From: Balanoglossus misakiensis | Taxonomy: Eukaryota > Animalia > Hemichordata | NCBI GenBank assembly: GCA_040954595.2 | Contig: CM082596.2 | Span: forward strand, 7,018,791-7,082,790 | DNA length: 64,000 bases | Direction of reading: 5' to 3' | In this document: positions 17,966-40,860 of the stretch, one piece after another | Layout: each line of letters starts with the position of its first letter | How positions within the stretch are numbered: position 1 is the first letter of the stretch | The notes under the pieces: model-generated | What the model was told of the DNA's origin: nothing | The model's input: the letters and a program-made list of their open reading frames with translations, nothing else | Databases searched by the model: none | Made by a program: the position numbers and the translations under genes

Positions 17966-19192
17966 CTACCCAGTTCCCTTTTTCATATCAAGATATATCT
18001 TCTTTTGCTGGTTATAAATCATTTTGGCGTCTTCGTACAATTTCAAATCCCACTGGTTTCTGCGTCCGAGCTCCGTGAGTTCGAAGTCGGTGATAGTCAC
18101 GTCGTGTTCATTCGCGTTGAGATGTGTCTCGTTTTTTGCCGGCCGTACCCCAAACACTTGACACAGCATGTCCTGGGACGTTTTGAAATCCTCCGTCAAG
18201 CCGACAAACGCCATCTTGGTGAAGAGATTGTTCCTGGCAGCCAGGTAGTGTTTCTCTTCAATCTTCGGGATGGTCTTGGCGTCTTCAAGCGCCACCCCGC
18301 CGAATCCATCTTCGAACGTGTCGTCTACGCTCGGAAAGTCGCCAAACTGCAGCAGCCGCACGTTGAAATTGTCCATGTCTTGATAGCGAACGTCCGTGGT
18401 CCTGAGCAAGTAATCCGTCAGATTTCTTGACGTCAGGAGGTACTGTTTACAGATTACGTGCCCGTGTGCGCAACGTGTTCTTTTCAAATAGTAATAGGTG
18501 GAGAGGAGTCTTGAGATGGGTTCGCGGAACCACGTCACGTAGGCAAACGGTCGCCGAGGGTAGGCGTAGTGATGCAGGCCAAACGTTCTTTTTGAATACA
18601 AATACGTCTGTTCACGAGTCTTACTGAGTGCTATGGCGGAGCTGAACATGCTCTTGCAGTGGGAAATGGGTGATTTTCGGATTATATTAATCCCCGTTTT
18701 CAGTCCGGGTATCTTCTTCAAAACGCTCTCCACCGAAGTGCCGCCCGCCTTCGGCAGGTGGACGAAAGCCAGGTTGGCGTTCTTGTAGTCGCCGTGGAGG
18801 AGGGCGCGGCGGCTGCGGTTCTGCGCCAAGAAGAAGTTGGGCAACGGGTCCCGGCCGATCGCTGTCCCGTTGTGGCAGCGCCTCATGTGCTCTATGACGA
18901 GAGCGCAGCTTGGCGACCTTGTCTTTGAAGCCAGGCTCTCGATATAACCACACGAGTGGTTGGAACGACCGCGTGCACCGTCGTCACGACCGTCTCCCAG
19001 TTTCCACGGAACAAAGCCCGGGTCAAACCGTGCGGCGGCCGCCGTCGTCGTGTTCTCCAAAGGCACGACCTCTAGCTCTGCCACGTGGACGTGACGCTCA
19101 CCGCGAATGTTGCTGTAGTCGTAGAACACCACCGCCATGGATAGGACACAGAAGACGAACAGACAGACCAAAGTATGTCGAAGGAGCTTCAT
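17966..19192 (-). CDS. Golgi type II sulfotransferase, HS6ST/Sulfotransfer_2-like, copy B, intact 408 aa single-exon CDS
   Basis: N-terminal hydrophobic anchor, then FVHLPKAGGTS, FREPISRLLS, DNFNVRLL, ARNNLFTKMAFVGLTE and NQWDLKLYEDAK. The motif order matches heparan-sulfate 6-O-sulfotransferase-like enzymes. Very similar to copy A in the C-terminal half. Confidence 0.9.
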   Translation of the reverse strand: MKLLRHTLVCLFVFCVLSMAVVFYDYSNIRGERHVHVAELEVVPLENTTTAAAARFDPGFVPWKLGDGRDDGARGRSNHSCGYIESLASKTRSPSCALVIEHMRRCHNGTAIGRDPLPNFFLAQNRSRRALLHGDYKNANLAFVHLPKAGGTSVESVLKKIPGLKTGINIIRKSPISHCKSMFSSAIALSKTREQTYLYSKRTFGLHHYAYPRRPFAYVTWFREPISRLLSTYYYLKRTRCAHGHVICKQYLLTSRNLTDYLLRTTDVRYQDMDNFNVRLLQFGDFPSVDDTFEDGFGGVALEDAKTIPKIEEKHYLAARNNLFTKMAFVGLTEDFKTSQDMLCQVFGVRPAKNETHLNANEHDVTITDFELTELGRRNQWDLKLYEDAKMIYNQQKKIYLDMKKGTG

Positions 19193-19540: not shown

Positions 19541-22275
19541 TGATACCAGCCAAAGGATCAATGCGATTGAATTGAAAAATGTGAACATGTGAGACTTCAC
19601 TTGTGCGTCGAGACCACTTAAATTCAATGCAACAAGAAAACTCGAGGCCAGATGTTTAGTAAGTACATGTACACAACTCACAAAGCCGGCGACCTTCCAC
19701 GCAGTTTTATAGGGCGTTCACATTACTAAAAAAAAGGGCTAGCACAAAAGAAAATAGGACGGTGGCCATTCGCATGATCCGACACCGGTTCGTGGTAACT
19801 TTTCATTGGCGGTTGTGCTTGAAACCAAAGGTCAAGTATTTCCTTTATGGAACCAACGTAAGAAGAGAAACCTGTTTGATTTCCCGTCCATGTATTGTAT
19901 TGCAGCGATCGAGTAAACAAGCTATGTACGCCCAGTGTTCTGGTCGGGTTATTTCCCCGCTTTTCGAAGTCTAACTCGTCTCTACTTGAGAAAACTCTAA
20001 CATTTGACGTGACAACGAAATGCAGCTCGTTGGAACAAGATGTGTTCCTCGGACGTTTGATTTTCTTATGTACATTGTATCTGAACTGCTGTCCGTTCAA
20101 GGCCTTTGGCATTGTCCATACACTTGAGTGGCCGCGCCTCGGACCAGCCGACAAGTCGCTTGGCGTTTTGTGGGGTTTTTGCCTTCACAAACATTATCTT
20201 ATTAAGTTTTTCGACATCTACCAATATGACTCTTTACATAATTAAGCCTATAGACCTTGGGCAAGCCTATAGCATTCTCCCAAAACTGTAGTCGCTTTTT
20301 CTTAGGGTTGCATTGACAATCAAGGTTATACGTGACCGTTCTACTCGGTGTCTGTATCTGCGATCTTCCGGGGTGCAGTCTCGATCGCGATCCGCAGCGA
20401 AAACGTGTTCCTGGCAACGAAATGGTGCCTAAAACTTGGTGGTCAGGGCGTTATCATTGACCTAAAGTTGCTCAACAGATAAAAAAAGTACGTACCGCCA
20501 AATCACGGACCCGAGCGCAAATCTGATTTAGCGCCGTGCGCGTATATATACGTATACGCGCATGCCACTGTTTTATATACTGTGCTGGGTTCAGTGCAGC
20601 CGCTGGCTTTGTCTCTAAGGCGTTTTAGAGGCTGTTATTTTTATCAAATCCACACGATACATTTCTGCCCCCAAAATTTGGGTATGGCCACCCGACCACA
20701 TCTTCTGAAAATACTCCCGACACCTTGTGTCCTGCGCGTCTGCTTATAAGGTGAGCGGCGTAGCAGCCTTCGCATACGCTTAGGCGGCAGTGCTAAATTT
20801 GGTATGCAGCCCTAGAGACAATGACAACAAATCTTGATCGACACTACTTCACATAAAAGAACACATTTTTTCGTGTCATATAACACACCCATCTAGCACG
20901 CGTACACAACAAATTCATCAGACGGGTTGCCTAAGACTAGGAAGGAAATCATACGTTCATATATACCTTATGTACATCCGTTTCCATGCAAAATCCGCAA
21001 CGGCGTCTCGTCTCCGTGAAAGAAGAATGAACACGCAAGTCGATGACGTCATCAACAAAATCAGTGACGTTGACAATTGTATAGCTGGCCATGTGAAGTC
21101 GGTAGCACTATTGAATAAGGCCAATAAGGAATTCATCTGATCATCGAGCGCTACATTGAAAAAATATCACGAGCGATCGAAATTTTTCGTAAAATATTTG
21201 CATACGTATACCTGTGCCAAAATTGGACGACATTATACATAAGTACGAAAGCTGATACTGTATTGATATCGATATGCCATGAGGTTTTTCAGCTGAGGAC
21301 AAATCGATAGAATACCATTTTAATTACTTCTTATCTGTGTGCATTTACAAAAATATATTCAAATATCTGTTTGGATCGCTAATTTCTACGGATAATGACT
21401 TGGAGCTCACAAAGGTATTATAATTATACCTCTCGTGTTCCAAGTCTATGTGTACATGACAACAATGGATCAGCAGGGCATTCGTTGGTTGCATATGTAG
21501 CCCACTAATCTTAACGGCCCCGTATTCGTCGACACGGGCATTCTATAGATGTAAACTATAATTATTAACCCCATTTTTCCGCGCATGTAAATGGTAATTC
21601 AGTGGTGACCCCAAAGGGAAGAAAAGATGTCCTTTGTGCCACGGGTTTTAAAAATGCGAGGAGAAAAGAGTGCAGGGCCTGAGGCTGGATGCGAATGACC
21701 GCACATACACCGTACATGCGGTTTAACGTTGACTGTCACGTATCCTGTTCAGTGACCCAATTCTAAGCTGATTTTGTATTCAACCACATGCATTCAACAC
21801 AAAGACTTAATTTTTTTAAAGTATTCCATAGATCGAATATGCATACTAGTACGGGTATTGTGATATGCTTGTTACCGGTGAAGAAAGCTTTCTGATTGGT
21901 TGGGCGGCCAAGGTTCAGTAATTAGAACACGTAGAAGCGATCACACGTAAATGAAACGCAATTCACAGTTTGGCTTTGGAATACAGTCGCAATGGACGGG
22001 AAGTTCGTTAAAACAATTTTTATTTCTGAATTAATACATCTACGGAAATTTATGTCGCAGCTAGAGAGATTGTAGGTGTTCGACATAATGGCGTGTTTTG
22101 TGATCAATTTGCATTTCACCTTATGACCACATATACTGTTGAGTGGTGCGCACAGGGAGAGACCTGGAAAAGAGGATGTGGGTTGGTGGCGCTCTACCGG
22201 CCACGATGCGGTACTTGCATCTTGGAAATTTTCGCGTTCAGCTCAAATTGGCATCTTGTCATTTACCACGACGTT

Positions 22276-22911
22276 ATGGATGGGCTCGCCTCGGAAACCG
22301 ACGCCACCGAGCGGGACCTGGACAAGAGATTCCGGGAGGAGTTTGTCAAGCTGGCCGTGGACTTGGAGGAGAAATGCCGCCAGAAGGCCGCCGCGCACGC
22401 CGATCTCGCCTCCTGGTGGGACCGACTCGGCAACTGGATGGAGCTGGTCGCCGTGGCCATGGGGGTGGTGGGGACCGTTCTGGCGGGCAGCCTGTGGGCC
22501 GAGACGGTGTCCACCACGCCCTGGCTGCGGTCCATCGCCATAGCGACCACCCTGCTGGCCAACGTGCTCCTGTCCATGGTGGCGGTGTTCCACAGCAGCC
22601 CGCACTGCCCGCGCAACCGGAGCCAGTCGCACGCCCGCTCGGCCAACAGGCTGCGGGAGCTGGAGAAGAAGACCGAGACGTGGCGCAGGATCACGCTCGT
22701 CGATCCGGCGGTCAGCGCCGACGTGCTCTTCCTTCAGTACGAAGTCATCCTGCGGGAAAGGTTTTGCGCCGAGGACGAGCTAATCACGCGCTGGGGTCCC
22801 AGTCAGCCCGGTGTGAAGAAAGGAAAGTCGTCCCAGAGGAGCGTGAAGCGATACTGGGGACCAGATAGCGGACCGAACTCCAACTCGCTGGATTTTGTAA
22901 GTTCTGTGTAG
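22276..22911 (+). CDS. SLATT-like (SMODS/SLOG-associated 2TM effector) membrane protein, about 211 aa
   Basis: GC-rich ORF with ATG at 22276, just downstream of a plausible acceptor (ttttcgcgttcag, 22241). Architecture: helix (..KAAAHADLASWWDRL..), two TM segments (about 22435-22500 and 22522-22590), then RSQSHARSANRLRELEKK, which resembles the SLATT 'H..A...Y..L' helix. The family call is from memory of the pattern. A GTAAGT at 22897 could mean the C-terminus is spliced. Confidence 0.65.
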   Translation: MDGLASETDATERDLDKRFREEFVKLAVDLEEKCRQKAAAHADLASWWDRLGNWMELVAVAMGVVGTVLAGSLWAETVSTTPWLRSIAIATTLLANVLLSMVAVFHSSPHCPRNRSQSHARSANRLRELEKKTETWRRITLVDPAVSADVLFLQYEVILRERFCAEDELITRWGPSQPGVKKGKSSQRSVKRYWGPDSGPNSNSLDFVSSV

Positions 22912-25544
22912 TGATTGCATCTGAAGCAAACTCACCCCGCCAAAAATGAACCAGAATATTAAACGATGCGCGGGAAAGTATTTTAACACGTTCTTATTTG
23001 GTGGACATGGAAAGTAACTTAGATATGCGTATAAAATTATTTTTACCAGCTTATCAAAGCCCCTGTGCAATAACTATACTTACGTTACGCAATTTCAATG
23101 TATAAGCGAATTTCAACCGAACAACTCCATAACTTCACGAACAAGTATGGCCGCTTAACACAATTAGACTGGGCAACATGGTTATTGAAATTCGTCTGCA
23201 GTTTTCTGTAAGTTGTCTTTTACATCATGGCCGTCGCCAATAGTTTACAACAAAACTATCATTGAACGCGTAATAATTCAGAGAAAAATTCCGAAAAAGA
23301 ACGAAAGTGATTTTTTATTTCAACGATTATTGTGATTTTTTCTCCCAAGTCGAACCAAGAGACGCAAAGAGAACGTTTTGGACAGATAATGCGTTTAGTT
23401 TTCAGTATGCTTTAATTCTCTGTAATTTTAAGATTTATAACAATTTATATTCTGAGGATGGTGCTACTTTGACTTTGCAAACATTAATTTAACGGATATC
23501 GATATTGACCCCACCGCCGCGAATGCCGGACATGCGCAAATAACGACGGAGTAGTAAATATTGATGAAGACGCCGAAACAACCCATAATGATGGTGCACA
23601 GTCTGGAAACAGAACGAAGAAAGCCACCGTGACGTCACAGGTCACGAAAGGGCACCTTATCGGTTGTGACTGACCCACCGCGAGCCAATAACGTCGACTG
23701 GTAAGCTTTCAGGTACGAAGGAGCCTGCGTATCGATTTGCAGAGATGTGATAATAGACTGTCTATTAGCCAGATACACTATCAATCCTTTCTTTATGTGT
23801 GTTCTCAAGGCTTGGCCAGGTGTCGCGATACAGAAACGGGAAAAATCTTTTTCACCACCCATTATTATCATTGAAATGAAAACTGCTTGTGTGTGCTATT
23901 TTTAAAAGCAATCTAGTCTTTTTTAATATTTTGAAATAATTAAAACTGCATATTGCTTGTTATTATTAGTCTCGAGCCTGTCAAGCGCATTATTGTGACG
24001 CTATTTTTGAACGAAAATCTCTATTTAAAAAATCATGTTATTTTGTCATTTCTATCTCTTGTCATGCATGACAAAACCTTAGATGCGAAACGTTTGTGGC
24101 GCCGTGTGCGTGTGGCATCAACTTTTATTCCCAGACAAAAACGTCTGCTGAAGGTGACGAGATATTTTCAACACCTGATGTCTGGGTCATTCTGCGTTGT
24201 CCAGGCGGTACATTTACTCGCACATGCTGTCTAAGTACACGAAATGTAAATTGAAAGCAGAAAGCTATTATGTATGCCCTTCCGTCCCATTGTTTATTCA
24301 CAATGTAATAAAATGTAATGTAATGTCTTTTTGAAGTAATGTCTATTTTGAACAGCCACCGATATCTAGTGATGCATTCCAAACGCATCCATCACTCGGC
24401 CTTTTCCATATGCTAAATACTTTTGGCCTATGCTTCTGGAAATGTCTGCGCGCGAACGTCAAGTTACACGTGCTGTTGTGTCTGTGTATATCCATGTGAA
24501 AGGGGAATTTCTCTTTTGTTAATGCTAAGAAGCCGTTATAGGAGACCTATAGTTAATTGCAGATTGTCGAAAATGAAGACCAACGATACAAATCAATGCA
24601 ATACAATACGCACAAGTATCGTTGCTTCTCTGTCTAGGCAATGCCTATGTAAGGTTTCCTGTCTAAGTTTTCCAATCCATTATACGCACTTAAAAGTATA
24701 CTGTCCGTGAAATGATCATCAAGATTTTACAGATTGTAAGAAAACAGTATTAAATTGGGTTTTTATCGGACTCGTAGTTTTCGTTTTCAGGTGAGTTGTC
24801 GAAAGAAGCTGAATCGATCTGTGTGTAGTCGAGGATAATTAAAACAGAAATTAATCAATATATTTCACCCCTCGTGCCACGAAACGCAAAGATAACATGC
24901 AAGAAATAGGCGGGGGAAAGACACCGGCGAATTAACTTTTTTGCTGACCGTCCTGTGTATGATTGACCTGCCTGGTGACACATCTACTTGACCTTAGGAG
25001 CCCCTCCCCGGTTCTTGTCAAAATTTGACAAGGTCTGTTCTCTGATTATCGAAATGATAAATCTGGCAAAGCCTTTCAGTCAGTCGCCGGTGGCAAAGTA
25101 CCACGTGCATTTGGCATGTTGGCGAGTGTACACAACGTCTGTGTAACGACATCGGCATCCGATATTTAACCATAAGCTTCAGATATGCCACTTCAATAAT
25201 GCGAGTTGGACGGAGCTGTCGACGACGCGAGTGCAACTCTGCTGGATTATTCCACGCGTTGCTAACGTTCCAGACAGCTGGAAAATAACCTGCTCTTGTT
25301 CTAGCGTGGATGAACAAAGTTGAGTTGCTGGCGGGCTCGGTATTGGGGATATTTTAGAGACGGATGAAGCAGCGTCCTTTTGCCGGAAGACCGTTATTTT
25401 GAGAGTGACGTCGTGGTGGTGAAATTTGCCAGAAAATACAGCGCCTGTGTGTGGTGGTGGTGACTGCGGTATCAAGTGAACGACGCTGGAACAGCACACG
25501 CCAATATCAAAGATTTTCAACGGTAGGCTTACAGTACAAACACC

Positions 25545-26300
25545 ATGGGTACAAAATCGTCCAAATCTGTCAAACTGGGGTCAACGTCCGTCAAGATATT
25601 CAAAGACAGAGACTCGGGATATGTTACATTGGACCTCAAAGACAAGGAATTAGACCAGTTGCCGCCCCGGGTGTGCCGCCAAAAGAAGCTGCAAGTTTTG
25701 GACTTGAGTCACAACCAACTGCAGACGTTACCAGTGGAGATTATCCGATTGGAGAAACTCAGAGCGTTGTTACTTTACTCCAACCAGTTTCAAGTGGTGC
25801 CGAGGTGTGCCTTTGAGCTGCGCAGGCTCGTCGAGCTGGTGCTCGCCAAGAACAAGATATCGGCGGTCCCGACCGAAATCCGACACCTGTCCAATCTGAC
25901 AGTTTTGTCTCTCAGTGGGAACTGCCTCGAGGATTTCCCCGTGGTGCTGTGCTGTGTCGAGCTCAGCGGTTTAGTAAAACTGGATTTGGGACACAACAAA
26001 ATCAGATACGTGCCGAACAACATCAGCAAACTTGTCTACTTGGAGACGTTTATAATCTCAGACAACGAGGTCGAACTTGTGTCCGATTCGATATGCAAAC
26101 TGGCCAGGATGACGGTGCTGCACCTGCACAACAACAGGCTGACGTCACTTCCGAGCAAGATGGCGACGCGGATGGCGAAATTGGAGGAGATTAGTTTCCA
26201 CGGCAATGACTTGCCTGGTGAAATCAGTAAAGTTGTGTCACGAGGGGTCGAGGGGCTAAGAGAATATGAATTGCAGCCAAGAAAAGAAGCCAAGAAATAG
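25545..26300 (+). CDS. Stand-alone leucine-rich-repeat protein (about 9 x 23-aa LRRs, 251 aa) with N-myristoylation motif
   Basis: Kozak context caccATGg with an in-frame stop upstream at 25524. Starts MGTKSSK (G2, S6, K7). LxxLxLxxNxLxxLP repeats, then a C-terminal cap (GNDLPGEISKVVSRGVEGLREY). Confidence 0.9.
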   Translation: MGTKSSKSVKLGSTSVKIFKDRDSGYVTLDLKDKELDQLPPRVCRQKKLQVLDLSHNQLQTLPVEIIRLEKLRALLLYSNQFQVVPRCAFELRRLVELVLAKNKISAVPTEIRHLSNLTVLSLSGNCLEDFPVVLCCVELSGLVKLDLGHNKIRYVPNNISKLVYLETFIISDNEVELVSDSICKLARMTVLHLHNNRLTSLPSKMATRMAKLEEISFHGNDLPGEISKVVSRGVEGLREYELQPRKEAKK

Positions 26301-26879
26301 TCGAAGCAAGATGCAACGGTCATGATTAAGCTGAAAATGCCAGACACATCTGGCAATAACGGGGCTGTACATAGCTGTCACTTTTGATGGCTCTAACTTG
26401 TTTTGGTGGTTTGGTTTGTGTGATATCTGCACCTTAGCCCGAAGTGTTTATTCTAGATTGCATGATCAGCCGTTTTAGAAACGTCTCAGATGAAATACAG
26501 GCGTAAATTATTTTATGTGTGAACGGTTTAAGTGGTCCTAAAATGTCTCAGATTTGAGACGGCTTTGCTGGCCAGACCTGAGCTGGTGTAATGATTAACA
26601 CCTCTCCGCAATGAGCCTCAGCGCCTACTCATAAAGTTTGTGTGTGTGGACACAACGCGACTCAAAGGATTAATGCTCTGTGTTTACCATAGGCAAATAG
26701 TGCCTCAAGTTTTACCCTGTGTGAACCCCAAGCGCGAAAGTATGATGAACCTATACTGTACTATGGTTATCTTAAGCTGGCTTGACTTATACACACATGT
26801 ACATGTACATAAAGACCATGTTGACGTCAGAAACAAAGTGGTCATTCGCAAACGTTTTCTGCACGTAAAAATAAAAAAT

Positions 26880-28140
26880 ACTCGAGGTTCTACCTTACAA
26901 AGTCTTATTTTTAGTCGATTCGATGATAATTTCTCATTAAAAATTAACAATTCTCGCTCTATAGCTCTCTCATATCATCAAGGTTCTTAAATAGGCAGTT
27001 TTATGCATAGCCGTGGTTCTTACCGAAAAATCGTGGTTCTTACGTTATGCAGCCCACAAAGTCAAAATTTTTCAAGGTTCTAACTTACAAAGTCTTAACT
27101 TTAGTTTATGCAATGATAATTTCTCATTAAAAATTAACAATTACCGCTCTCTGATATCATCAAGGTGCTTAGATAGGGAGTTTCATGCATAGCCGTGGTT
27201 CTTACCAAAAAATCGTGGTTCTTACCGAAAAATCGTGGTTCTTACGTTATACAGCCTACAAAGTCAAAAATTTTCAAGACTCTAGCTTACAAAGTCTTAA
27301 CTTTAGTTTATGCAATGATAATTTCTCTTTAAAAATTAACTATTCTCGCTCTATAGAACCTTGATGATCTCCGCCATGTATAAAATCCTATTTAAGAACC
27401 TTGATGATCTCCGCCATGTGTAAAATCCTATTTAAGAACCTTGATGATCTCCGCCATGTATACAATCCTATTTAAGAACCTTGATGATCTCCGCCATGTA
27501 TAAAATCCTATTTAAGAACCTTGATGATCTCCGCCATGTATAAAATCCTATTTAAGAACCTTGATGATCATCGCCATGTATAAAATCCTATTTAAGAACC
27601 TTGATGATATCGGCCATGTATAAAATCCTATTTAAGAACCTTGATGATCTCCGCCATGTATAAAATCCTATTTAAGAACCTTGATGATCTCCGCCATGTA
27701 TAAAATCCTATTTAAGAACCTTGATGATCTCCGCCATGTATAAAATCCTATTTAAGAACCTTGATGATCTCCGCCATGTATAAAATCCTATTTAAGAACC
27801 TTGATGATATCGGCCATGTATAAAATCCTATTTAAGAACCTTGATGATCTCCGCCATGTATAAAATCCTATTTAAGAACCTTGATGATCTCCGCCGAGGT
27901 CCTACCAAAAATTGAGGTTCTTACGTTTTACAGCCTAAAAAGTTAAAAATACTGATGTTCTAGCTTACAAAGAAAATATTTTTAGTCGATGTGATGATAA
28001 TTTCTCATTATTAATTAGCATCTATCGTAATTAATCTGTCCGATATCATCAAGGTTCTTAAATAGGATGTTATACATGGCCGATGTCATCAAGGTTTTCA
28101 GATGATAATTGCACATTAAAATTTACAAACTATCGTAATT
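26880..28140. repeat. Complex satellite with an approximately 190-200-bp unit, enclosing an inverted 40-bp array
   Basis: Units beginning 'aggttcta.cttacaaagtctta' at about 26885, 27075 and 27277, plus a diverged one near 27955, with internal 'cgtggttcttac' subrepeats. Confidence 0.8.
27355..27896. repeat. 40-bp minisatellite, about 13.5 near-identical copies (agaaccttgatgatctccgccatgtataaaatcctattta)
   Basis: Exact 40-bp periodicity read directly; no unique spacers. Confidence 0.95.
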
Positions 28141-29906
28141 TATCTCTCCAACCTCTCCTGACATGTACATGCCAAAATCACCCTTGGTGACGCCTCGATC
28201 TATTTAAAACACGTCACAGGGTGCCATTTTGAAGTCGTTCGCACTGAGTGCTGGCAGCTGGTCTCTGCACTTTCCACAATTTTCACCAGAAATCTCAAGT
28301 GTGCAAGGTAAGCTTGAGTCTTAAGATATCGGGGCACAAACGTATATATTTTATAAACACAAAGATTGTGTTAACGAGGGAGCCAATGGACCGAGAGACT
28401 TTCAGGTGCAGTGCACTAGTGGAATGGCATTGCAACACTTCCCTCTTTAAATCAGTCGCCATATTTGATAGCTTTCGCACTTTTGTGTCGCTGCTAGAAC
28501 AAACGAATTTGCAAACAATCCTGCACTAACAACAAGTAGGTAAGATTAAGATATGTCCGACTCGTAACAACCACAAATTTCTTAACCATTTTCCAGTGGG
28601 CTTGTGTGAATATTACTGGCTGGTTTGTATTTATTACACCTGTACCGATTACTGTTAAATTGTACAATAGTTATTATTCCTGCTCAAAGCCTACCGTGTG
28701 TATTATTACCGTACAATTGCAGAACAACTCGACAGTTAAAATCCGGGTGTGTGCAGGTAACCGAGAACATTATAAGGAAGTTGGTTAGGATTTTGGTGTT
28801 TCATATCTAGGTGTCAGACAGAATTTATCCAGGGCGGGGTGGCTGTTGGGGATGTTGACTTGTTCGCAAGAACTAGACAGGAACAAGTCTGTTTTCTCTC
28901 TCTCCAAAGAATGGCTTGTTTGAAGTCGGTACATATAAAGTTTACAACTAGAACCAAAAACCAAAAATACATGAGCTTTAGTTGCGACTTGTTCATCTAC
29001 TTTCTTTCTGGGTTATTTATGTCTAATTCCCTGCAAATCTCCGTTTATTAGACAATGTGTAGAATATCCAGGCATTGTCCCGCAATCCGTCCTGATGGCC
29101 GTATGGGTCACTAAACCTGATTATTAGCACAATAGTTAGTCCTCAAAAGTGGATTGTATTTAATGTTTTGTCAAGTGACGTACAGTGTATGTCTGTCATT
29201 TGCCCTGCTTTTAGGGAGACTTTTCGTACCAACAACAAACGTGTGATACTTGCCCCCCTCCCCCGCTAATGATTCTTGAGCCCTCAAGGAAGTAGAACCT
29301 ATTTTTCGAGACACGTAGCACCATCATTGGGAATTTATAACTTCAGTATCTTGGGCGTAAATCGCCCGGCAGGCTAAACAATTGGGATCAAAGTTTAAGA
29401 AGTCTGCTGCTGTGATTGACGAGAAATGCGGCTATTAAACAATCAGGACACTTTGGGTGAGGGAGACTGTTCTAGAGAGATCCATGTCAGTCTGCCTGCC
29501 TGCGGCGATGGCGTAGAAATTTTATTACCTAGATACAGCAAATATTACGATAATATTATGATTTTATTACATAGATATGAACATCGTATGATCAAGTAGA
29601 AGCCATTGAAATTTCTAATTTTAAATGATGACTCATTGTAAGAAAGCTGACTAATGGGATTTGTACAATATATATAAGAGTGATGTACACCTTTCTACAG
29701 ATTCAGATGGGAGATCGGATGAGATTCACATCGGAGCTTGATTATTAAAGACTTGGTTGAAGATTGGAACTTGAATACTTGGTGTCTGCCTCAGTTACTA
29801 AAAAGTATTACGATCCTGAGTGGTATCTCGACTGAACGGACTCCACGGACTGACAGTGAATGAGGGTCTAGGGTGAAGACGGCGACAAATTAGGAGCTGG
29901 TAACAC

Positions 29907-30027
29907 ATGTATGTATGTATGTATGTATGTATGTATGTATGTATGTATGTATGTATGTATGTATGTATGTATGTATGTATGTATGTATGTATGTATGTAT
30001 GTATGTATGTATGTATGTATGTATGTA

Positions 30028-30101
<74 letters not shown>

Positions 30102-30143
30102 GATGGATGGATGTATGTATGTATGGATGTATGTATGTATGTA
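29907..30143. repeat. Compound (ATGT)n-(GT)n-(ATGG)n microsatellite, probably intronic, upstream of the LRR-caspase coding exon
   Basis: Read directly. It produces the artefactual MYVC/CV prefix of ORF 29907-31127. An acceptor gtttacag lies at 30281-30288. Confidence 0.95.
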
Positions 30144-30293
30144 TTATCCTTAGCTCAACATTTGCTAAATCATCAGAAAGTTTCGCATTTGATTATATAC
30201 ATGAAAACACTGTCCAACAATATTTTGTTAGTTAGAGTTCTCATAATGGGAATAAACGTCAGAATTTGTCATGTTTATGTGTTTACAGGAATC

Positions 30294-32328
30294 ATGGAGG
30301 CAGTTTGGGACCAAACAGCTAAGAAGTTCGACTTCAGTGCCTCTCACGTCGGCAGTGTACCTGCAGACCTCTGGACAAAGTACAAGGACGCCAAAGTTGT
30401 GAACTTGTCAAGCAACAAACTACGAACACTGCCAGACCAGCTGAGGAAACTGACAAACGTCGAGGAGCTCTACCTTGACCACAACCAATTCGACTACTTT
30501 CCACGCGTCATCTGCCAGATGAAGAGTCTGAAAATACTCCATCTTGGATACAATAATATAAAATATATCCCGGTGGAGATTTCAAACTTGCAGCAGCTGC
30601 ATGAACTGAATCTATCGAACAATGAGATCGCTTTCATCCCACACGAGCTTTGTTCTCTTAAAGAGCTTCAGCGACTCGATCTACAAAGGAACAAGATAGT
30701 CAAGCTTCCTGACAATCTAGGGGAACTTGAGAAGCTACAAGTCCTACTGTTGTCAAATGGACATTCGACTGAGGATAAGAATCGACTGTCTGAACTTCCT
30801 GACAGCATATGCAAGTTGCAACGCCTGCAATCATTGGACGTCAGCGGAAATAAACTCACCACTCTGCCAATCGGCGTGCAGGAACTTAAATATTTGCACA
30901 CAGTCGATTTTTCCGACAATCCATTTTGCAATGGTGACCCCCTGCAGTGCCACCAGAGTCGCAAAAATGCTCAGATGTGTGTTGAAAAAGTCCTGCACTA
31001 TGTTTCATATAAATTTGAGCGATATTCTATGAGCAATAAACCACGAGGATTGGCTGTAATAATAAATAACCAACACTTCAAAGGCTTGCCCGAACGTGTC
31101 GGCACAGAACATGATGAGCGTAAGTAGCCATCAAAATATTATGAAACTTATAACATTTGTACGGCTTCATGACATTGTTTTTTCAAGATTGTTAAAGGCT
31201 CTACTGTTTTCACTACAGTGAACTTGATTTGAACCAATATATCTTTTAACGTAGTTGCTCTTGAGTTTACACTTGGATGACATGGAAGAGTATATTTGCG
31301 CCTAGAGTAAACCATAATATCGAAAGTTTGCAAAATAAGGACATTACTTCTGTTAAAAATTCTAATAGTACTTGAAGCATTCTCGATGTTGATAAGCTAC
31401 TAGTATATGACATTTTTGAAAATGAGGTAGTTTTTGCTCATCAGCTGTTCGTATTTTTGCAGGACGGCTGGTGGAGCTGTTTGGGAAATTGCATTTCACG
31501 GTAAAAGTACATCGTGACCAAAGCATTCAGCAAATGGACGACGTGATGCGGGATGCCAGTAGGAGCAGCCATGAAAAGCACGACTGCCTCGTAGTTTGCA
31601 TCATGTCTCATGGGGTTGGCGACAAGATCTTCGGCAGTGACGACCAAGGTATACATATACATGATCTAACAAGATGGTTCAAGGCAAGCATGTGCCTTTC
31701 CCTTGCTGGAAAACCGAAGATATTCTTCATTCAAGCGTGCAAGGGAAGCGAACGCATGACAGGAGTGACCACGGATGAGGCGTGTCCAGTTGACGCAATC
31801 ACCTTTCCGAACCAAACCCCGGATGTAGGAGATTTCCTCATAGGCATGTCGACGGTTCCAGGTTATGTTTCATACAGAGAACGTCGAACTGGAACTTGGT
31901 ATATCCAAACTCTAGTAGATGTAATGGAAAAGTATGCCAGCTACGAAACTCTCCCAGCTATTCTAGAAAGGGTTGCTAAACAAGTTGGCGAGATGTCGAC
32001 AGACAAGTCGGCAAAGAAGACGAAAACCAAAAGCAAGGCGGCAGAGAATACGAAAACCGGAAGCAAGACGACACAGAATACGAAAACCGGAAGCAAGACG
32101 ACACAGAATACGAAAACCGGAAGCAAGACGACACAGAATACGAAAACCGGAAGCAAGACGACACAGAATACGAAAACCGAAGACAAGACGGCTCAGAATA
32201 CGAAAACCGAAGACAAGACGGCTCAGAATACGAAAACCGAAGACAAGACGGCTCAGAATACGACAGCTGAAACTCAAATGTCATCGCATTTTAGCACCCT
32301 CAGAAAGAAGCTGTTCTTGACGTACTGA
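30294..32328 (+). CDS. LRR-caspase fusion (N-terminal LRRs + caspase-8-like C14A domain), about 563 aa, 2 coding exons
   Basis: Exon 30294-31119 (donor GTAAGT, phase 1) joins exon 31463-32328 (acceptor tttttgcag) in frame: ...GTEHDE-R-RLVELF. It has 8-9 LRRs, then YSMSNKPRGLAVIINN, R.GT..D, SHG (31606-31614), GKPKIFFIQACKG (QACKG at 31732-31746), DFL...ST.PGYVSYR...GTWYIQTL and a C-terminal STLRKKLF, as in caspase-8. Confidence 0.92.
32011..32262 (+). repeat. Coding 30-bp minisatellite (about 8.5 units; NTKTGSKTTQ / NTKTEDKTAQ) inside the caspase small subunit
   Basis: Exact 30-bp periodicity, in frame, between the last helix and QMSSHFSTLRKKL. Confidence 0.95.
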
Positions 32329-32516
32329 AGTCATCCAGACTGTAGCTAGGTGTTTCCCTAGTTTTTCTGCTCTTTGCAGCCAAACACTGGGTGTTTGACC
32401 AAGTAACACTAACATGTTTATCACATTTGACGAAACTATTTGAAAATCATTTACTATACTGTCCAGCTGCTGTTTGCAACTCACTGGAGTCGGAGGTGAC
32501 ATGTCAATGCAGCAAT

Positions 32517-32619
32517 CAATCTGATTAAAATCAGATGTAGGGAACGGCGACGTGGTTTTTATGCTGTCGCCTCACAAAAAAAACGTCGCCGTTCCCTACA
32601 TCTGATTTTAATCAGATTG
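32517..32619. mobile_element. 103-bp fold-back MITE with perfect 37-bp TIRs and a 9-bp target-site duplication (Mutator-like)
   Basis: Arms 32517-32553 and 32583-32619 are exact reverse complements; tgcagcaat occurs at both 32508-32516 and 32620-32628. Confidence 0.9.
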
Positions 32620-35600
32620 TGCAGCAATATGTATTAAGTCGTGTCCCATTTGGCCATTCACTCGTGAATTTCCATTTGGTTGGTGAAACATGAACCTTTA
32701 CCAATGTTAACACGATTACAACTATAAATTCAAATAATTGCATTTGCATAAAATTTTCAACATTCTTATCTCGGGGTACATTTATTGAACCCCCCTCTGA
32801 ACTGGTCATTTTGTTCTGTTCAGATGTACAGTATCAATTTCTCTCATGAAAGACAGCAAGTTCGTTTACTACGTTTTGGAGTTTGGCGGAATTGAATTGA
32901 ATTGAATGCAACACTACCAAAACTGCAGCAGCAAATTACGCGCTATTCAGCACAGTAAAAAAACGAGAAAATGTTCATAGTTGAGGGTCAAAAGTTTGTT
33001 TTTTTATCAGATGGCACACGTAATATTAAACCAGGGCGCATAATATACATATACTCTCTTTTCAAATTAACAGTTCAGAAATAGATTGAAGTCTTCCGAC
33101 AGTAAATGTAGATGCTTTTTCCGCTTGTTGCGAAATCTCGAAAAACGTGTTTATTACCGTACCATGAGTTGCTAGCCAAAATGCAAGTCAAAATGTGTTT
33201 GAAACTAGAATGGGGCGATGTATTGTTTGTCCAGTGTCACATGAGAATGCCCCCCCCCCCCCCCAGCTTAAAAACTCCCTAGCCACGCGAGATCTCACAA
33301 GGTCTCGTGGTGTTCGGAAAATGGCCTATTATACGAAGTATGAAAAAGATGAACTTACATGTACCAGGTAGTCCCGAGCAGTGCAAAGATAACGTACTGT
33401 CCGTAGCTTCACCATTATTTTTGCCGTCCAACAGGTTGAAGTTGACGTACAGGTTATCCTTCAGGTAGTTCATCATCATCGGCAATCAAGTTGTTACGTT
33501 GCTGCTGTTTTCTCTAAGCTATGGATATTTACAAATACTTTAGCCATCAAGCGCTGGTCAGCTAGGAGAACCGTGGCTATTTCGGACAGAACAGCATGTT
33601 TCTGTTGAAATAAACGTGGTTATATTCGCGTCAATAAAATTCGTGTCTTTCAATAAAAGCATCGTGCTCTATCAGTAAATTTTCACAGCACTAAGCCGAG
33701 CACTAGACATGGCAAAAATGGTAGAGGATAGCCAGCAGTTAAAACAGTTGAATTCAAGCCGCGATTCCACGCCCACTAAACACCACGTTTACCTTAGCGG
33801 TCACGCCCACCACGTGTAGGGAAGGATATTTACGTGTTTCAAACTTGTCGCCCAGTGCACGGCGATGCGATCCGAAATTCCCGAACAGAACAAGTGAAAG
33901 TTATCAGAGACTCGTCATAGATTACCTGTTTGCCTCTTTAAAGACCTTGGCACGCGATTTTCACTTGAATTTACGGAGCTGAGCTGCGCCGAACAGTGTC
34001 GATTTTGCGGCCATGCGGTAGACAGTATTGCGTAATGACCTGCACGATCTGTTTTTTTTTTTTGTTTGAGTATCATGTTGTCGTCAGCATTTCAGGTGCC
34101 ACATTGGCGATTAAAAATAACATCTCTGGTTCTTTACTTGTATAAATATATAAATTGTTGCCGGCAACGGAAGTAAACGGCATGACCTGGAGTGTGACCT
34201 TATTTACGCACAGCGCGGCCATTTTGTATTTGGTTCATCATATTTGCATGTAGGAACGCACTTGCAATAGTAGCCAGGTGTAAGAGGACTATACCACCTG
34301 TGCTCAGCGTGGTGGCCAATGTATACAGAGATTAAAAAAACAATATCCCAAAGTATTTATAAACCCACAGAAAGTTTGATATTCCTGTACAAACCTTTGA
34401 TAAGTCAATGAAGCCGATATAGTTACTTAATTTAAAATTTAGAATCTTAAAATTGCAAACATCTCGCACAACCCAAGATAGACGGCTAGCATTTTATTAT
34501 ATTGTAAAACTTCTCGCAGGGTCTACGGCCTGTTATACTGAAACAAACATATAGCATCATCATTAAATTTTTATTCATATATTAAAGTTTGTTGAAGTTG
34601 CATATACATGTACTACTAATTTAATACCATATAACCTTAGCTCTATCGTTACAAGTCAAGATACATTTAAATAAATACATAGATCATTAAAATTAAGTTT
34701 CTTTGAGATTTAAAATATTATCCCTATAAGGGGGCAAAGATACCAATGTATGTGTTTTTGTATATGTTTTATAAGAACAGTAAAGTCTTGATGAAACATA
34801 CACTGGACTGAAACTTACCAGCAACTGTACCCTCCAAATCAACATACGTGTATAATGAACTAACTTAGCCAGTCCCAGGTTTTGGTACTTGCAAGGTTCG
34901 ACTTTAGTATTACACCAGACGGTACTTTGCCCCTTCCATCAAGCAAAACTAAAAAATACACATTTCATCATCAAACCCATCGAATACTTCCTATACTTGA
35001 AAAACAACAATCCTTGTTAAGTTGAACGCATGCCCTTGTTTTTGACTATATGTACTTGTAACAAACCCTTAATCTCACCTTTTGAAATAATTTAGCAATT
35101 CAAATGAAAGTACGGGACACAGGCATTACCTGCATATATAGAAATAATAGAAATACATAACTGATATAAACTTACAAAATATAATGAAATACATCGTTAT
35201 AATGTTGATTTGACATAAAATCTTTACAACCTAGTTGTCACATTCCATAGAAAGTAGGTCCTAGAATAGAAGTAATTTTTTTATAGATAGTTTACCAAAA
35301 TAACACAGACTGGTGGATTATTTGCAGGAATTGAAATCCAAATTTTTTCTTGACATGCCTTCTGACAGTTGTAGTACCTTCATATCCGGGCAGGAAATGG
35401 CAAGACACAATTATACTTTATCAACTGAACTTTATCACAAAGTATCAAATAGCTGGTTTTTACTTGATTGATTGTACTAGCACTTTACTTAATTTGTGAT
35501 TGTTTCAATCAATGTTTGATTGCATAAGTGAGCATTGTTATCTGATTTTAATTGATTTATTGATTGATTGACGGTTGCCTGACTAACTGATTGACCCATT

Positions 35601-36446
35601 GGCTCACTGATCGATTACCAAGTAACTGTACTCAATCCCATGTTTATTTTTTTGCGTGTCCGTGCACCCAAGTGAAATTCTCTGATTTGAATAGATCTCC
35701 ACTTTCCATGGTAACAGGCTCAATTTGCATAGGTGATAGCTTGATAAAGACAGCTCCAACTAACATGGTTATGTCTAAGTAGACACCTGTAAACTTAATT
35801 GACAAACGCAACTATTTCAAAATTTTCTATACCAACCATTTCTGGTCTGGAATATCTAAAGCCCCAACAAGCCACTGAACTTACAAATATTTGAATAAAT
35901 ACAAGACTATATATGCAATATGGGAAAAATCTTTCACACGTCAAAGATTTGCCATTTTGCTTGCTGTGTCCAAATCTCAATACAGTGTACTGTTATATTT
36001 CAGTTGTTTAAAATTGTGTCGATCAGTCAAGTTGACACATTTAAATCTTGAGCACCTAAAGGTGTCATATTGTCAAGCAAATGCAAAATGTATGCTCAAA
36101 AGACATACCTGTATTTGAAGTCATAATGATTCTTTTTATGACATTACACTATTATTTCTGTTATATAATAGATCTTGTTTGAGAAGCAATGTTAGCTATT
36201 CAAAAACTCTTTACACCGACACCACAAAACACAGAAAAATGCTTTTGTAAGAATTAAAGTACTGTAATGAACAGGTCAATTATATTTCCGAAGAATATTT
36301 ATACTACGTAATACATTACATGCGTTGTAGTGTCCACTCAGAGAAAAATATCTGCTGTGTAGTATATATATCATCATACAAGCTAAGCTGTGAGAAAACC
36401 TTGCTTCCAAGCTTCTGAGATTAAAGGTCAACGACCTCCTTGACCT

Positions 36447-39400
36447 TTACTCGCTCCCCCACAGAGCGTAGAGGGTTCTCAGGGCTCCGTGCAGTTCCGA
36501 CATGCAGGGGTCCGCTAGTTGCAGTCTCTCTTCTCCAGTGGGCGACTTGACGACCTCGTAGCCCAGGCTCTGGACGAAGATTCTGGCCGGGCCCGGGGAG
36601 GCGCGGAAGAGCTCTTTGACGGTGGGGTCTTCGAGTGACGGACAGAAGCCGGTGTCCACAGTCTCTTTCACCTGGGGGAGCAGAACAGGAAGTTAGGGTT
36701 GCCCACAATCCTTTACTACTGATCAGTATAAATGAGAAACAACTTTCATGTGGCAAAGTTTCACTCTGTACTTGAGTTTTTTTTGGAATAAGCACACAGT
36801 TTGAATTCAAGGACAATCTCCCTCCTGAGAGTTACTACACTTGCAGGCCTGCAGTAACTATCCCATTCAGGCAACAACCACTACCCACAACATTTCACGA
36901 GGGAACTTACCAAATGGAAGACCAACTTGTAGAGGTCCCCGTGCCACTCATAAAGTGCTTTACACTGCTCATCGGACAATTCTGAAGAAGAAAAAAAACA
37001 TTGAGAATGTTTTAAAGGCAATAGATCGTCTCACGCGCATGCACGTTACCGTAACTTCCCAGCAAATTTTCTGTTCGATGCATTCAAATAGTGGACTGCC
37101 TTCACTTCCTTCCATATTTCATGCGCACCCAAGCTGGTGTCTTTTCCCGATCTCCGATACAGATTATGGTCGCCGCCATCTTCTCTGTTGTTAGGACAGT
37201 CTTGAAATGTCAGACTAGTTGAGCAAACAGTACTGAATGCCGTGAGACATTACCTAACATGGCAGCTAGAACACAGTGGAACGCTCGTAGGAGATCGCCC
37301 TCGTCTTCATCTGGGAAGATCACTTTTTCTGCCTGGAAATTTGGAAGAAGAAATAATTGATTAGTTTCAGGCTTTGTGCAGACATGAAAACATGTCCAGC
37401 AAAAACCACCTCAATGGCAAAGACTTGTGACTTGACGCGCCAGTTGAGTTGGTACCCCTGTTGACAAACATGCACACTTTTACACATTCATCTCATTATA
37501 AGGGCACAAATAGATGACCTGGACTACTTACTGTGAAGGAGTACTTGATCTTTTGCAGGAATTCTTTCCACTGCACAACCTGGCCATCCAGTTTTTCCGA
37601 CACGAGACTGAGATCTTGTTCCAATGTGGTCTTCTCGCTCTCGTTGACATTGCTGTGACCTAGCCCAACCTGAAATTTGAAAAGGTGAGAGAGAAAATCT
37701 AGGTGAGATTTTACCCAACTTTCAGCCTTTGCATCACAGACATGGTTGAAATTTCCCCTCGTCAGTGAATGTCTAAGGTCAAGGTTAAGATAGCGGAGTA
37801 TGAGGGCACTGCATTGTTCCATTGCAGTAAACACGGCTCTGTGTTATATGACTGCTATGATTAATTGTGAAGACACGGTAGGGGTATAACAATTGAGTAT
37901 GAGGGCGCTACACCATTCAACTGCACGAAACAGTACTCTGTATTATATGACCAGCACACATGGAAGTAGAAAAGAAATAAAGCTCCAACTGACGACTGAG
38001 GCCAGAAAAATAACGGTACGTACAATTTGTTCCAGGTCACCAATGACATAGGGACGTCCCAACAGCGAATGCAGCCAATGAGAGAGCCAGTATCTTTCCA
38101 CAAACTCCACAAATTCCAACCCGGTGATTGGTTTAAACATGTCGTACAGATCTGGATCTGTTAGCCAAAAGAAACAAATTAAACAGAATGTTAATCACAC
38201 TCAAACAAAATCACTAATATTTCCATTCAACTCCTTGGGGAGCAAACAACTGCTCACATGTGCGGCCGTTGTATCGGCACAGCAATCTCTGTCCTACCAG
38301 GTACCCATTTCTCCTGGGTGGGGAGAGGCAATGAGAAGCAAAATGCCTTGCCAAAGGACACAACACCACAGCCATGCCGGGGCTCCAGATCCTTCGATCA
38401 TGAGTCCAATGCTCTAACCACTAGACTATGATGCCTCTAGACTCTCTCACAGCCCCTCTCGCCGTCCATGCAGGCTTATGGACTGATTGCATGTGTGCCC
38501 GGCGCTACACAACACCATATGGGGCTTCTCCTTTGCTAAACGGTCGAAGGCGCATCAGTGAAGAGCCTTGTAGTGAACCGTGGGCTGTGAGAGAGTCTAC
38601 GACGCCTCCTACTCAAGTGGCAAGAAACAAACTCACCAGTCGGTTCAGCTTCGGCTTCATCTTCAAACGGATTATCTGTCTCGTCGTCTTCGCCGTCTAT
38701 CACCGTCACCATCTTGGGTTCTGGTTTCGGAAGAACGAAGCCGCCGTCGCCCTCACCCAGGATAAGTAGCTTCACTTTCCCGTCCATGGATATTTGCAGC
38801 TCGGAGACGTGGTACGCTATGGGCGTGTTGGCAGGGATGAGGAGGGAACGAAGTTTTTCGTTGTCAATAGTAACATCCTCTTCTCCCTGAAAAACAAACA
38901 AACAGATGACTTAAATTAAAATTCAAGCAAACAGAAAATAGTTTGCATGGAGAAACTCCTCACCACACATTATTCAATCTAATATGCATCATGAACAGTT
39001 GAAATGTGTTTGTGGGTGGGACTAGGTATACAAAGAATTACGGCGATTTTCAACCTCAATAAGATGTGGTCAAACATAATGAATATTGTTTTCTAGCTTG
39101 ATTAGGCTAACAAAAACATACACAAGCTAAGATATACTTCTAACCCTGGAAACGTTAACAAATTAAACAGTTAAAAATAATGATGACAGGTTACACTGGG
39201 TAGCTTGTGTCCTTCTGTTCATCTTCAAAGTCTGACTAACCTTGCTATTAGATGTCCCATGAGGAAGCTTGAAAACTTTCTCCGGTCAAACAATTTTCTC
39301 TACCTCTCTCTCTCTCTCAGCATATAGCATGTATAAAGCATATAATTCACGAAAAAAAAACAGAATCATTTCCTGGTTTACAACCAGTCAAGTGCACCAT

Positions 39401-40860
39401 CACCCTTACCTCCGTCTGGACTGAAACAGGCACCTCCACATCTTCTATGCCATCGCGCATGACATGAGTGACCAGCCTGCTGTCCTTCGATGGGGACAAC
39501 ACACCAACAACCACGCACAGGACGTTGCGATAATTCTCGTGTACTTCTTTCACGAAGGGGTGATTCAGGTTCAGGGACCTAATGAAAAAGACCACTACTA
39601 CATTACTAAGAATGTTTTTATCTAAACGTGGTCACTCGGTCGGTATTCGTGTACCTAGACTTTCTGGCTAATATTCTACAGACAGAACTTCACCCCCAGT
39701 ACAGTGACCTCTGTGACATGGACGACTGATATAGACTCAGGCCACACAACATGCCTGGCAAAGCATTGTTTGCTCTGTTCAATAGTAAAACAGTAATTAT
39801 GTCTTATCAGTACAACAGTGCCATATCATGGATGGAGTTCATGCCACTTGACTTGTTAACAAGTCATAACATGGGCGTACCTACCACACGGGTACATCCA
39901 TGGTTATAGTAGTACCGTACATGTGTGCCCTCTACGTGTGACATTATCACTGTTATTAGCATTGAATGCAATGGACAAATATCACAGATTTCAGTACATG
40001 CCTGTAACACAGTCTGATCAGTACCTGTAACAGTCCCTGAGAAACACCTATGTTTTAATGGACCTATAAAAATTGGTCAGGTACCAGGGGTGTGTGGACA
40101 GGTTTGAATCAGGCCTGGCATTACAGGAATGTATAGTAATACAGTGATATAATTTCTAACTGTGATCACACATCTGAAACACTGGTGCGCGAACAATAAT
40201 GTGACAGGGCTGAGGATACATGGTCTGAAAAATTGTAAGATTTCAGGGCTGTATATTTCAGAAAAATGGACCAATTTTGATGAGAGAAATGAATACATTA
40301 CAGGCATAATTGTGTGTACATTACACATCCAGCTATTCCTATATACCAAATGTTGTATCAAGGTCTGTACAAGACCTGTCACAGGGACGATTTTTTTGCT
40401 GTGTATCAGAATTTCCGCTAGTTCAGTTCCTCATTTTTTTTATCACGACCTACCTGTTCATCAACGCTTGCTGCAGTACGGGGATATTGACCTTCTCTTT
40501 GGCTATCGTGCCCAGATTTGACATGACGTGCACGGCGTCCTCCCCGCCCACCTCGAGCCCGACTTCGCTGAGGACCTTTCCGCCGATCTTGCCCTTGGCG
40601 TCGAACTTGGCGCTGTCCTCGAACTCGGTGAGATCCTCTTTGGAGACGGGAACATCGAGGGGCTTGTCGTTGTTCTCCAAGAGCTGTTGGATGGTGAACG
40701 GGCTCGGGGTGTACTTCGGCGACCGCCAGAACCAGCGGCGCTTCTTCTTGACGACCACATGGAAGCAGCAACAGTCCTTCGCCTGGTCGAGGGACGGCAC
40801 CGGCAGCAGGGTGTCCTCCCCGAGCGATTTCGATAATTTCTTTGCCACCGCAGTAAACAT
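36447..40860 (-). CDS. GSDME: Gasdermin, GSDME/DFNA5-like, 8 coding exons, 490 aa
   Basis: Exons 40454-40860, 39410-39578, 38637-38886, 38024-38157, 37532-37669, 37254-37332, 36911-36981 and 36447-36671. All introns are GT-AG and phase-compatible, giving 1473 nt. MFTAVAKKL...LLPVPSL...VVKKKRRWFWRSPKY matches the GSDME N-terminus (MFAKATRNF...VTKKKRFWCWQRPKY). LLIPANTPIAYHVSEL...DG...GGF ends the pore domain, followed by an acidic linker and a helical C-domain with AAMLELSDEQ. The family call is firm; exact orthology is inferred. Confidence 0.88.
38221..38437 (-). mobile_element. tRNA-derived SINE in gasdermin intron 3
   Basis: The minus strand starts gaggcatcatagtctagtggttagagcattggactc (tRNA A-box-like head). 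It continues with gtgtcctttggcaaggca, ctctccccacccaggagaaatgggtacc and ctccccaaggagttg, blocks typical of conserved-core invertebrate SINE2 families. Confidence 0.7.

Follow-up and report, generated by a model that had tools for sequence, protein, structure and literature searches.

A 64,000-nucleotide stretch of the acorn worm Balanoglossus misakiensis genome (contig CM082596.2 of assembly GCA_040954595.2, positions 7,018,791–7,082,790 of the forward strand; hereafter the window) holds a row of four genes at 22276..40860 in which a caspase fused to leucine-rich repeats (LRRs) directly adjoins a gasdermin. The locus is real and unusual, while each protein family in it is known and the layout itself is known from microbes. 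The explanation we prefer, to which we give a probability of about one half, is that an ordinary gasdermin E (GSDME) sits in a lineage-limited immune neighbourhood where the LRR-caspase is one of several activators, and that the two do not form a dedicated, conserved module. Direct observations behind this are the gene models and their order, the catalytic dyad of the caspase, linker aspartates present in three gasdermins, and an LRR-caspase build found in two lineages.

Three of the genes lie on the plus strand, coding for a SLATT-type two-transmembrane protein (22276..22911), an LRR-only protein (25545..26300) and the LRR-caspase (30294..31119 and 31463..32328), and the gasdermin runs on the minus strand from 40860 to 36447, the caspase stop at 32328 and the gasdermin stop at 36447 converging tail-to-tail. 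All four coding sequences are intact at the positions and on the strands given in an initial annotation of the window, which had read them as consecutive genes, and its protein identities held up in our searches, the SLATT call in the form SLATT_4-related. No further gene was detected between them: intergenic ATG-initiated open reading frames (ORFs) of at least 60 amino acids matched no fetched protein, none of five gave a Pfam match, and their GC content at third codon positions (GC3) was 0.29–0.58 against 0.52–0.86 in the four genes. The initial annotation had also described the row as operon-like, a description we do not retain. With the gasdermin on the opposite strand and gaps of 2,633, 3,993 and 4,118 nucleotides, the last measured from caspase stop to gasdermin stop, there is no shared transcript to propose, and the row is therefore a cluster, not an operon.

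The gasdermin gene comprises eight exons on the minus strand (40454..40860, 39410..39578, 38637..38886, 38024..38157, 37532..37669, 37254..37332, 36911..36981 and 36447..36671, the last with the stop codon), separated by seven introns that are all GT-AG, and encodes 490 amino acids. Exon 1 matches the Pfam family Gasdermin (PF04598; E 2e-18, 67 bits against a cut-off of 25) and a gasdermin-E-like protein of Ptychodera flava at 84%; exon 2 joins in frame and is matched in tblastn by three relatives; exon 3, with the end of the pore domain and an acidic linker, was placed by splice model and alignment; and exons 4 to 8 come from the splice model together with tblastn matches of the relatives. 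Aligned end to end, the model reaches 72% to P. flava XP_070569883.1 and 49% to Saccoglossus kowalevskii XP_077870584.1, with 72% and 47% identity, respectively, in the C-terminal part. In the Protein Data Bank (PDB) the P. flava ortholog was matched best by gasdermin E pores (E 1e-22, against 5.5e-4 for gasdermin D). By these alignments the protein is of GSDME type and has a full C-terminal domain behind the linker, a 210-residue region that would act as the inhibitory domain. The Saccoglossus protein, 476 residues long and labelled ‘pejvakin-like’, likewise has a full C-terminal domain, hence full-length GSDME-type proteins do exist in hemichordates, contrary to a statement in PMC11508797. 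When metagenome contigs were scanned with the P. flava gasdermin, 80 pattern matches came up, none of them a relative.

Two aspartates in the linker are kept in all three acorn-worm gasdermins, D256 (TVID/G here, DVPD/G and VDID/V in the other two) and D263 (DETD/N here, SEVD/N and DEPD/N in the others). A cut at D256, which is followed by a small P1' residue, would yield an N-terminal fragment of 28.3 kDa, within the 28–29 kDa that the initial annotation had anticipated. The motif DxxD is the preference of caspases 3 and 7. PMC11508797 likewise notes DxxD sites that are conserved. In amphioxus, GSDME proved a substrate of each of the three native caspases tested, and of human caspase-3 as well (PMC10155998). 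Because the linker keeps such a caspase-3-type site (DETD263), the gasdermin needs no dedicated caspase partner, and an ordinary executioner caspase would suffice; the adjoining caspase is probably able to cut it, yet is not required to explain it. The protein resembles the GSDMEs of amphioxus (BbGSDME; PMC10155998), coral and Hydra (PMC13475620) in type, in aspartate sites near positions 253–263 and in a predicted fragment of about 28–29 kDa, although the amphioxus motifs VHTD253 and DVVD304 are not kept. The searched passages of PMC10155998 turned up no neighbouring caspase for the amphioxus gene.

The LRR-caspase is a 563-residue protein encoded in two exons, the first with seven LRR units and the beginning of the caspase domain, the second with the rest of the catalytic domain (Peptidase_C14, E 3.7e-43). 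Its His/Cys dyad (His325 in SHG324–326, Cys368 in QACKG366–370) is intact, and the Asp-pocket arginines are present by alignment, the RVGTEHD and VSYR segments aligning with caspase-3 and caspase-8. A self-cleavage site is predicted in the linker at VTTD381, where Saccoglossus has VETD. An in-frame 30-nucleotide tandem repeat (32004–32263, plus strand, 8.7 copies) lies inside the small subunit before the last strand and adds about 85 Lys/Thr-rich residues that the Saccoglossus homolog does not have. Only LRR families match the N-terminal exon in Pfam, and a tandem DED prodomain was not found there; a search near the start revealed no coding upstream exon with a death-fold, though a distant one may exist. 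The true start may lie further upstream, since an AG acceptor precedes the ATG by 5 nucleotides.

Among 24 caspase matches (proteins of 315–2000 amino acids) the best was S. kowalevskii LOC100369664 at 46%, itself LRR-bearing, with caspase-8 proteins next. A tree of 14 rows, using 13 of the 24 matches and leaving out near-duplicate mustelid and metagenome rows, contained no supported set with the window caspase, and in a PDB search caspase-3a scored as well as caspase-8. The protein is likely of the caspase-8/10 class, and it is an animal QACxG enzyme and not a bacterial one. LOC100369664 (XP_006816014/5) shares the LRR plus Peptidase_C14 build, with the 46% lying in the catalytic domain and the linker site in the same position, but differs in a 130-residue low-complexity N-terminus, fewer LRRs, the missing repeat insertion and a contig other than that of the gasdermin. 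By domain composition, the LRR-caspase build is thus common to two acorn-worm lineages. The Saccoglossus protein is listed as ‘Sko_casp10b’ in supplement 3 of PMC11251625, and the domain-organisation section of that paper does not mention LRRs. In the ESM Atlas, the Saccoglossus LRR-caspase had no usable feature match, and the structure rows contained no cluster of LRR-caspases.

These features also suit a stronger proposal, in which sensing and activation are united in the LRR-caspase as one protein, the adjacent gasdermin is its main substrate, and linkage has been selected, with no NLR or ASC and in convergence with microbes. We regard this as possible but tentative. In its favour are the tail-to-tail adjacency with no gene in between, the intact dyad and Asp-pocket arginines, the small P1' residue after TVID256, and the recurrence of the LRR-caspase build in Saccoglossus. 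Acorn-worm NLRs have been reported to carry no N-terminal effector domains; the same source, PMC11508797, names NLR and GSDME/PJVK alone for Hemichordata, caspase-1 being absent from its list, and a different route is thereby left open. The objections are that linkage was not seen in Saccoglossus, that no P. flava ortholog of the caspase was found, and that the caspase-3-type site is kept in gasdermins where no linked caspase is seen.

The caspase is also unusually variable within one sample, as read from its DNA contigs, a further point for a dedicated sensor. In a second caspase version, covering 30200–32074, 21 of 400 letters are changed within the LRR part (about 5%) and 50 of 392 within the catalytic part (about 13%); this copy could be either a divergent allele or a paralog. 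The neighbours differ at 8 of about 1,050 letters (LRR gene) and 10 of about 500 (gasdermin exon 1). Among the rows listed, with 35 exon-1 positions, 21 of 28 changed codons in caspase exon 1 alter the protein, against 2 of 8 in the SLATT gene. Amino-acid-changing and silent codons nevertheless stand at 21:7, near the neutral site ratio, 647:178, so no positive selection is evident; relaxed or mixed selection fits, and an arms race is not proven.

The initial annotation drew a parallel with bacterial and fungal gasdermins encoded beside proteases, and this stands: of the bacterial gasdermins 43 of 50 adjoin a protease, of the fungal ones 40 of 52, and some of these proteases are LRR-fused (10.1101/2021.06.07.447441); here, too, a gasdermin gene lies directly beside the gene of a repeat-domain protease. 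The closest bacterial likeness is the gasdermin-protease operon of the Runella kind, where bGSDM accompanies an LRR-NTPase-CHAT protease, in that a gasdermin neighbours a caspase-family protease fused to repeats, LRRs included (10.1101/2021.06.07.447441; PMC13475620). In Balanoglossus, by contrast, both genes are animal and spliced, they lie on opposite strands with 4.1 kb between them, and they encode a true QACxG caspase with no NTPase domain and a gasdermin with a full 210-residue predicted inhibitory domain; cleavage of the one by the other would be a prediction, and the linkage was not found conserved. Fungal HET-Q1/HET-Q2 clusters offer a eukaryotic gasdermin next to a multidomain repeat protease (PMC12881547), but their partners are often subtilase-like (10.1101/2021.06.07.447441) and the clustering extends to more than 80% of genes, whereas here it is seen in one genome. 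On the boldest reading, which we find rather doubtful, ptychoderid acorn worms would have rebuilt the microbial sensor-protease-gasdermin cluster out of animal components: a fast-evolving LRR-caspase would sense a ligand of a pathogen, activate itself and cut the gasdermin encoded beside it, needing neither NLR nor adaptor, and an LRR protein anchored in the membrane and a SLATT membrane effector would belong to the same defence island.

Conserved linkage, whose absence in related species the initial annotation had named among the grounds for rejecting its proposal, was not found, in an indirect test that yields soft negatives. The S. kowalevskii relatives of the gasdermin, LRR-caspase and SLATT genes lie on three contigs (of 552,588, 380,760 and 191,429 bp, respectively). 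For P. flava, the sequence that carries the SLATT relative is 41.5 Mb long and the one with the gasdermin 44.0 Mb, and none of the 24 matches from the word-based search (proteins of 315–2000 amino acids) was a P. flava caspase. Neighbouring genes usually carry close accession numbers. The nine S. kowalevskii caspases of PMC11251625 are at least 1,345 numbers away from XP_002740828 or at least 2,445 from XP_006824139, gasdermins compared each in its own series. According to PMC8742441, synteny around the gasdermins of invertebrates is not conserved, and no caspase stands among the Fig. S3 labels of that paper, which cover seven species, as far as label text goes. The Nematostella gasdermin NVE20414 and the caspase NVE20429, orthologous to the Hydra pyroptosis caspases, have identifiers 15 apart (PMC11251625); published scaffold labels for the Nematostella gasdermin locus include no caspase.

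How readily could such adjacency arise by chance? With assumed numbers of 10–45 caspases among 20,000–35,000 genes, the genome-wide chance of a caspase directly adjoining a given gasdermin is p ~0.0006–0.0045, improbable in one genome and expected occasionally when many are scanned. The surroundings of the gasdermin may shift these odds. A multi-exon CPS1 gene (43177 to ~56300, minus strand; E 2.6e-30 to human CPS1, with MGS and GATase exons) ends 2,316 nucleotides upstream of it and flanks the row on the right. CPS1, SF3B1, SLC40A1, ATG9A, ANKZF1 and CASP8/10 all lie, we presume, on human 2q. Human PJVK is placed at 2q31.2 (PMC8742441), and Fig. S3 of the same paper has a CPS1 label in a run with NUB1, SF3B1, SLC40A1, ATG9A and ANKZF1, apparently that of the limpet Lottia, whose gasdermin has nub1 beside it. 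This hints at an old gasdermin-CPS1 linkage. If gasdermin, CPS1 and caspase-8/10 genes shared an ancestral chromosome, shuffling would make adjacency several times likelier than 0.06–0.45%.

Several points weigh against our preferred reading of an ordinary GSDME in an immune neighbourhood. The prior for direct adjacency is low in any one genome (0.06–0.45%) and drops again with the rare SLATT-type gene that lies three genes off. High same-sample divergence of the caspase fits a pathogen-pressed sensor, which a dedicated module also predicts. The negatives on linkage are themselves open to discount: accession distance is a customary proxy for the order of genes, not a direct reading of it; the Saccoglossus relatives come from a fragmented assembly and may be paralogs; and the P. 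flava negative is weak, the search having covered proteins of 315–2000 amino acids and the same tool having returned just two gasdermins.

A neighbouring caspase need not be an activator. The LRR-caspase might instead bind microbes or the gasdermin and dampen it, or cut it at an inactivating site, which we consider improbable. There is precedent in oyster CgCas1-2D, a 2xDSRM-caspase that binds bacteria and GSDME, lowers inflammation and does not cleave (PMC12122919), and in amphioxus, whose GSDME has an inhibitory second cut (PMC10155998); the long repeat insertion near the last caspase strand could also alter the groove. Neither the catalytic His and Cys nor the linker Asp is disrupted, though, and no inactivating site was identified. 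Like the Balanoglossus caspase, the oyster protein has a sensor-type prodomain where a death-fold would stand, and a tie to GSDME, but the prodomain is DSRM, not LRR, the enzyme is caspase-1-like, and it binds GSDME without cutting it (PMC12122919).

Still less probable, in our estimate, is that the two genes are neighbours by coincidence only, the LRR-caspase serving apoptosis or development in different cells, where it would not meet the gasdermin. The caspase-8/10-class identity would suit such a role, and apoptosis terms were not enriched by poly(I:C) in Saccoglossus (PMC11251625). An immune role fits better with the LRR fusion and the high divergence within the sample, and amphioxus GSDME was cut by every caspase tested. 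A Saccoglossus poly(I:C) paper, PMC10210618, contains neither ‘caspase’ nor ‘gasdermin’ in its main text or in one supplement.

Horizontal transfer of a bacterial or fungal gasdermin cluster is very improbable, and for the gasdermin and the caspase it is refuted by the introns, the GSDME type and the animal QACxG enzyme. The layout does look like that of bacterial systems, and the SLATT gene is intronless and GC-rich (GC3 0.86), with distant look-alikes in bacteria and giant viruses. Yet the gasdermin has seven introns and a full C-terminal domain, the best matches of the caspase are animal caspases, neither of the two matches PADLOC, and the named SLATT relatives at E ≤0.001 are all acorn-worm proteins. 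An old transfer of the SLATT gene alone may have occurred.

The SLATT-type protein, 211 residues from a single uninterrupted ORF, has two adjacent hydrophobic helices (~53–75 and ~81–107; hydropathy peaks 1.99 and 1.72) with helical flanks, as in SLATT proteins, and its model places helices at 3–70, 82–107, 112–140 and 148–170 (predicted local distance difference test score, pLDDT, 74.7). It has no Pfam match itself, falling below the cut-off of SLATT_4 (PF18186), but the PADLOC two-transmembrane effector profile matches it at E 1.6e-4 and its top ESM Atlas matches are SLATT_4 clusters (0.93). HMMER found four relatives among 1.84 billion representatives (E ≤0.001), the named ones from Glandiceps, Saccoglossus and Ptychodera, and two of these three, those of Ptychodera and Saccoglossus, pass the SLATT_4 cut-off of 27, one scoring 28.6 and one 27.6, whereas the third scores 21.2. 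The window protein is probably SLATT_4-related. A word-based search found no relative among 514 candidates. All pairs in the family are only 22–33% identical, too little to assign orthology among its members. In fold searches the best viral matches were giant-virus SLATT proteins at E ~1e-3, none reaching 0.001; a single-sequence fold (pLDDT 54) matched nothing in the PDB, and in a wide PDB search the better model met generic helical bundles only (Z up to 10.6). SLATT_4 effectors of prokaryotic defence and giant viruses share with it two hydrophobic helices between helical soluble parts, a resemblance of profile and fold (PMC9503650); unlike in those systems, no gene for a nucleotide signal (SMODS, SLOG, TIR) was seen nearby, among 26 window ORFs scanned against Pfam, spliced genes being covered between 14 and 57 kb. 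The SLATT gene is tied to the caspase and gasdermin by position only. Another haplotype contig over the 5' part of the gene (22173–22671) shows four gap positions.

The LRR-only protein, 251 residues in a single coding exon, has eight LRR units (Pfam LRR_8, E 7.7e-30) and starts MGTKSS, with the MGxxxS pattern (G2, S6) from which N-myristoylation is predicted by motif alone. Among solved structures it is closest to LRR proteins of the SHOC2/LRRD1 type and to leptospiral ones, and it is 37% identical to the LRR part of the caspase, a level that any two such LRR proteins could reach. A spliced fusion of the LRR gene with the caspase was considered and is not supported: the LRR frame has nine in-phase GT sites, none of them GTRAG. 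IRF-type motifs near the gene were discarded as evidence, 18 such matches being spread over the window. Both the SLATT and the LRR gene look like fast-moving genes of immune type. Between the LRR gene and the caspase are a 40-nucleotide tandem array (27355–27895, 13.5 copies) and a 182-nucleotide near-duplicate (26885–27225). To the left, the row is flanked by two tandem, intronless Sulfotransfer_2 ORFs on the minus strand (14699–15889 and 17969–19192), with a possible third, partial copy at ~15237–15935.

In the reading we prefer, then, the gasdermin would have belonged to an old neighbourhood with CPS1, as synteny suggests; genes of the caspase-8/10 class probably shared its ancestral chromosome, and one of them would have become its neighbour through local shuffling. 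From what is known of caspases in general, the LRRs may stand in for DED or CARD, binding a ligand and dimerising the protease, which would mature by cutting itself at VTTD381. The mature enzyme would then cut executioner caspases and, as one enzyme among several, cleave the gasdermin after D256 or D263 in the linker, which would free a pore domain of about 28–29 kDa. The caspase is likely able to trigger the gasdermin in this way, directly or via caspase-3/7.

We found no report of an animal gasdermin beside its caspase, of an animal LRR-caspase, or of an acorn-worm SLATT protein, in literature that included few subscription journals. How GSDME is activated in infected invertebrates is largely open according to PMC10155998. 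A caspase with LRRs as its sole prodomain is a direct candidate for sensor and activator in one protein. A 2025 review regards genomic clusters that join a sensor-protease to a gasdermin as a trait of microbes (PMC12881547); should the pair be cognate, such clusters would occur in an animal too. Otherwise the locus still offers two undescribed pieces, an LRR-caspase common to two lineages of acorn worms and a family related to SLATT_4 with members in three of their genera.

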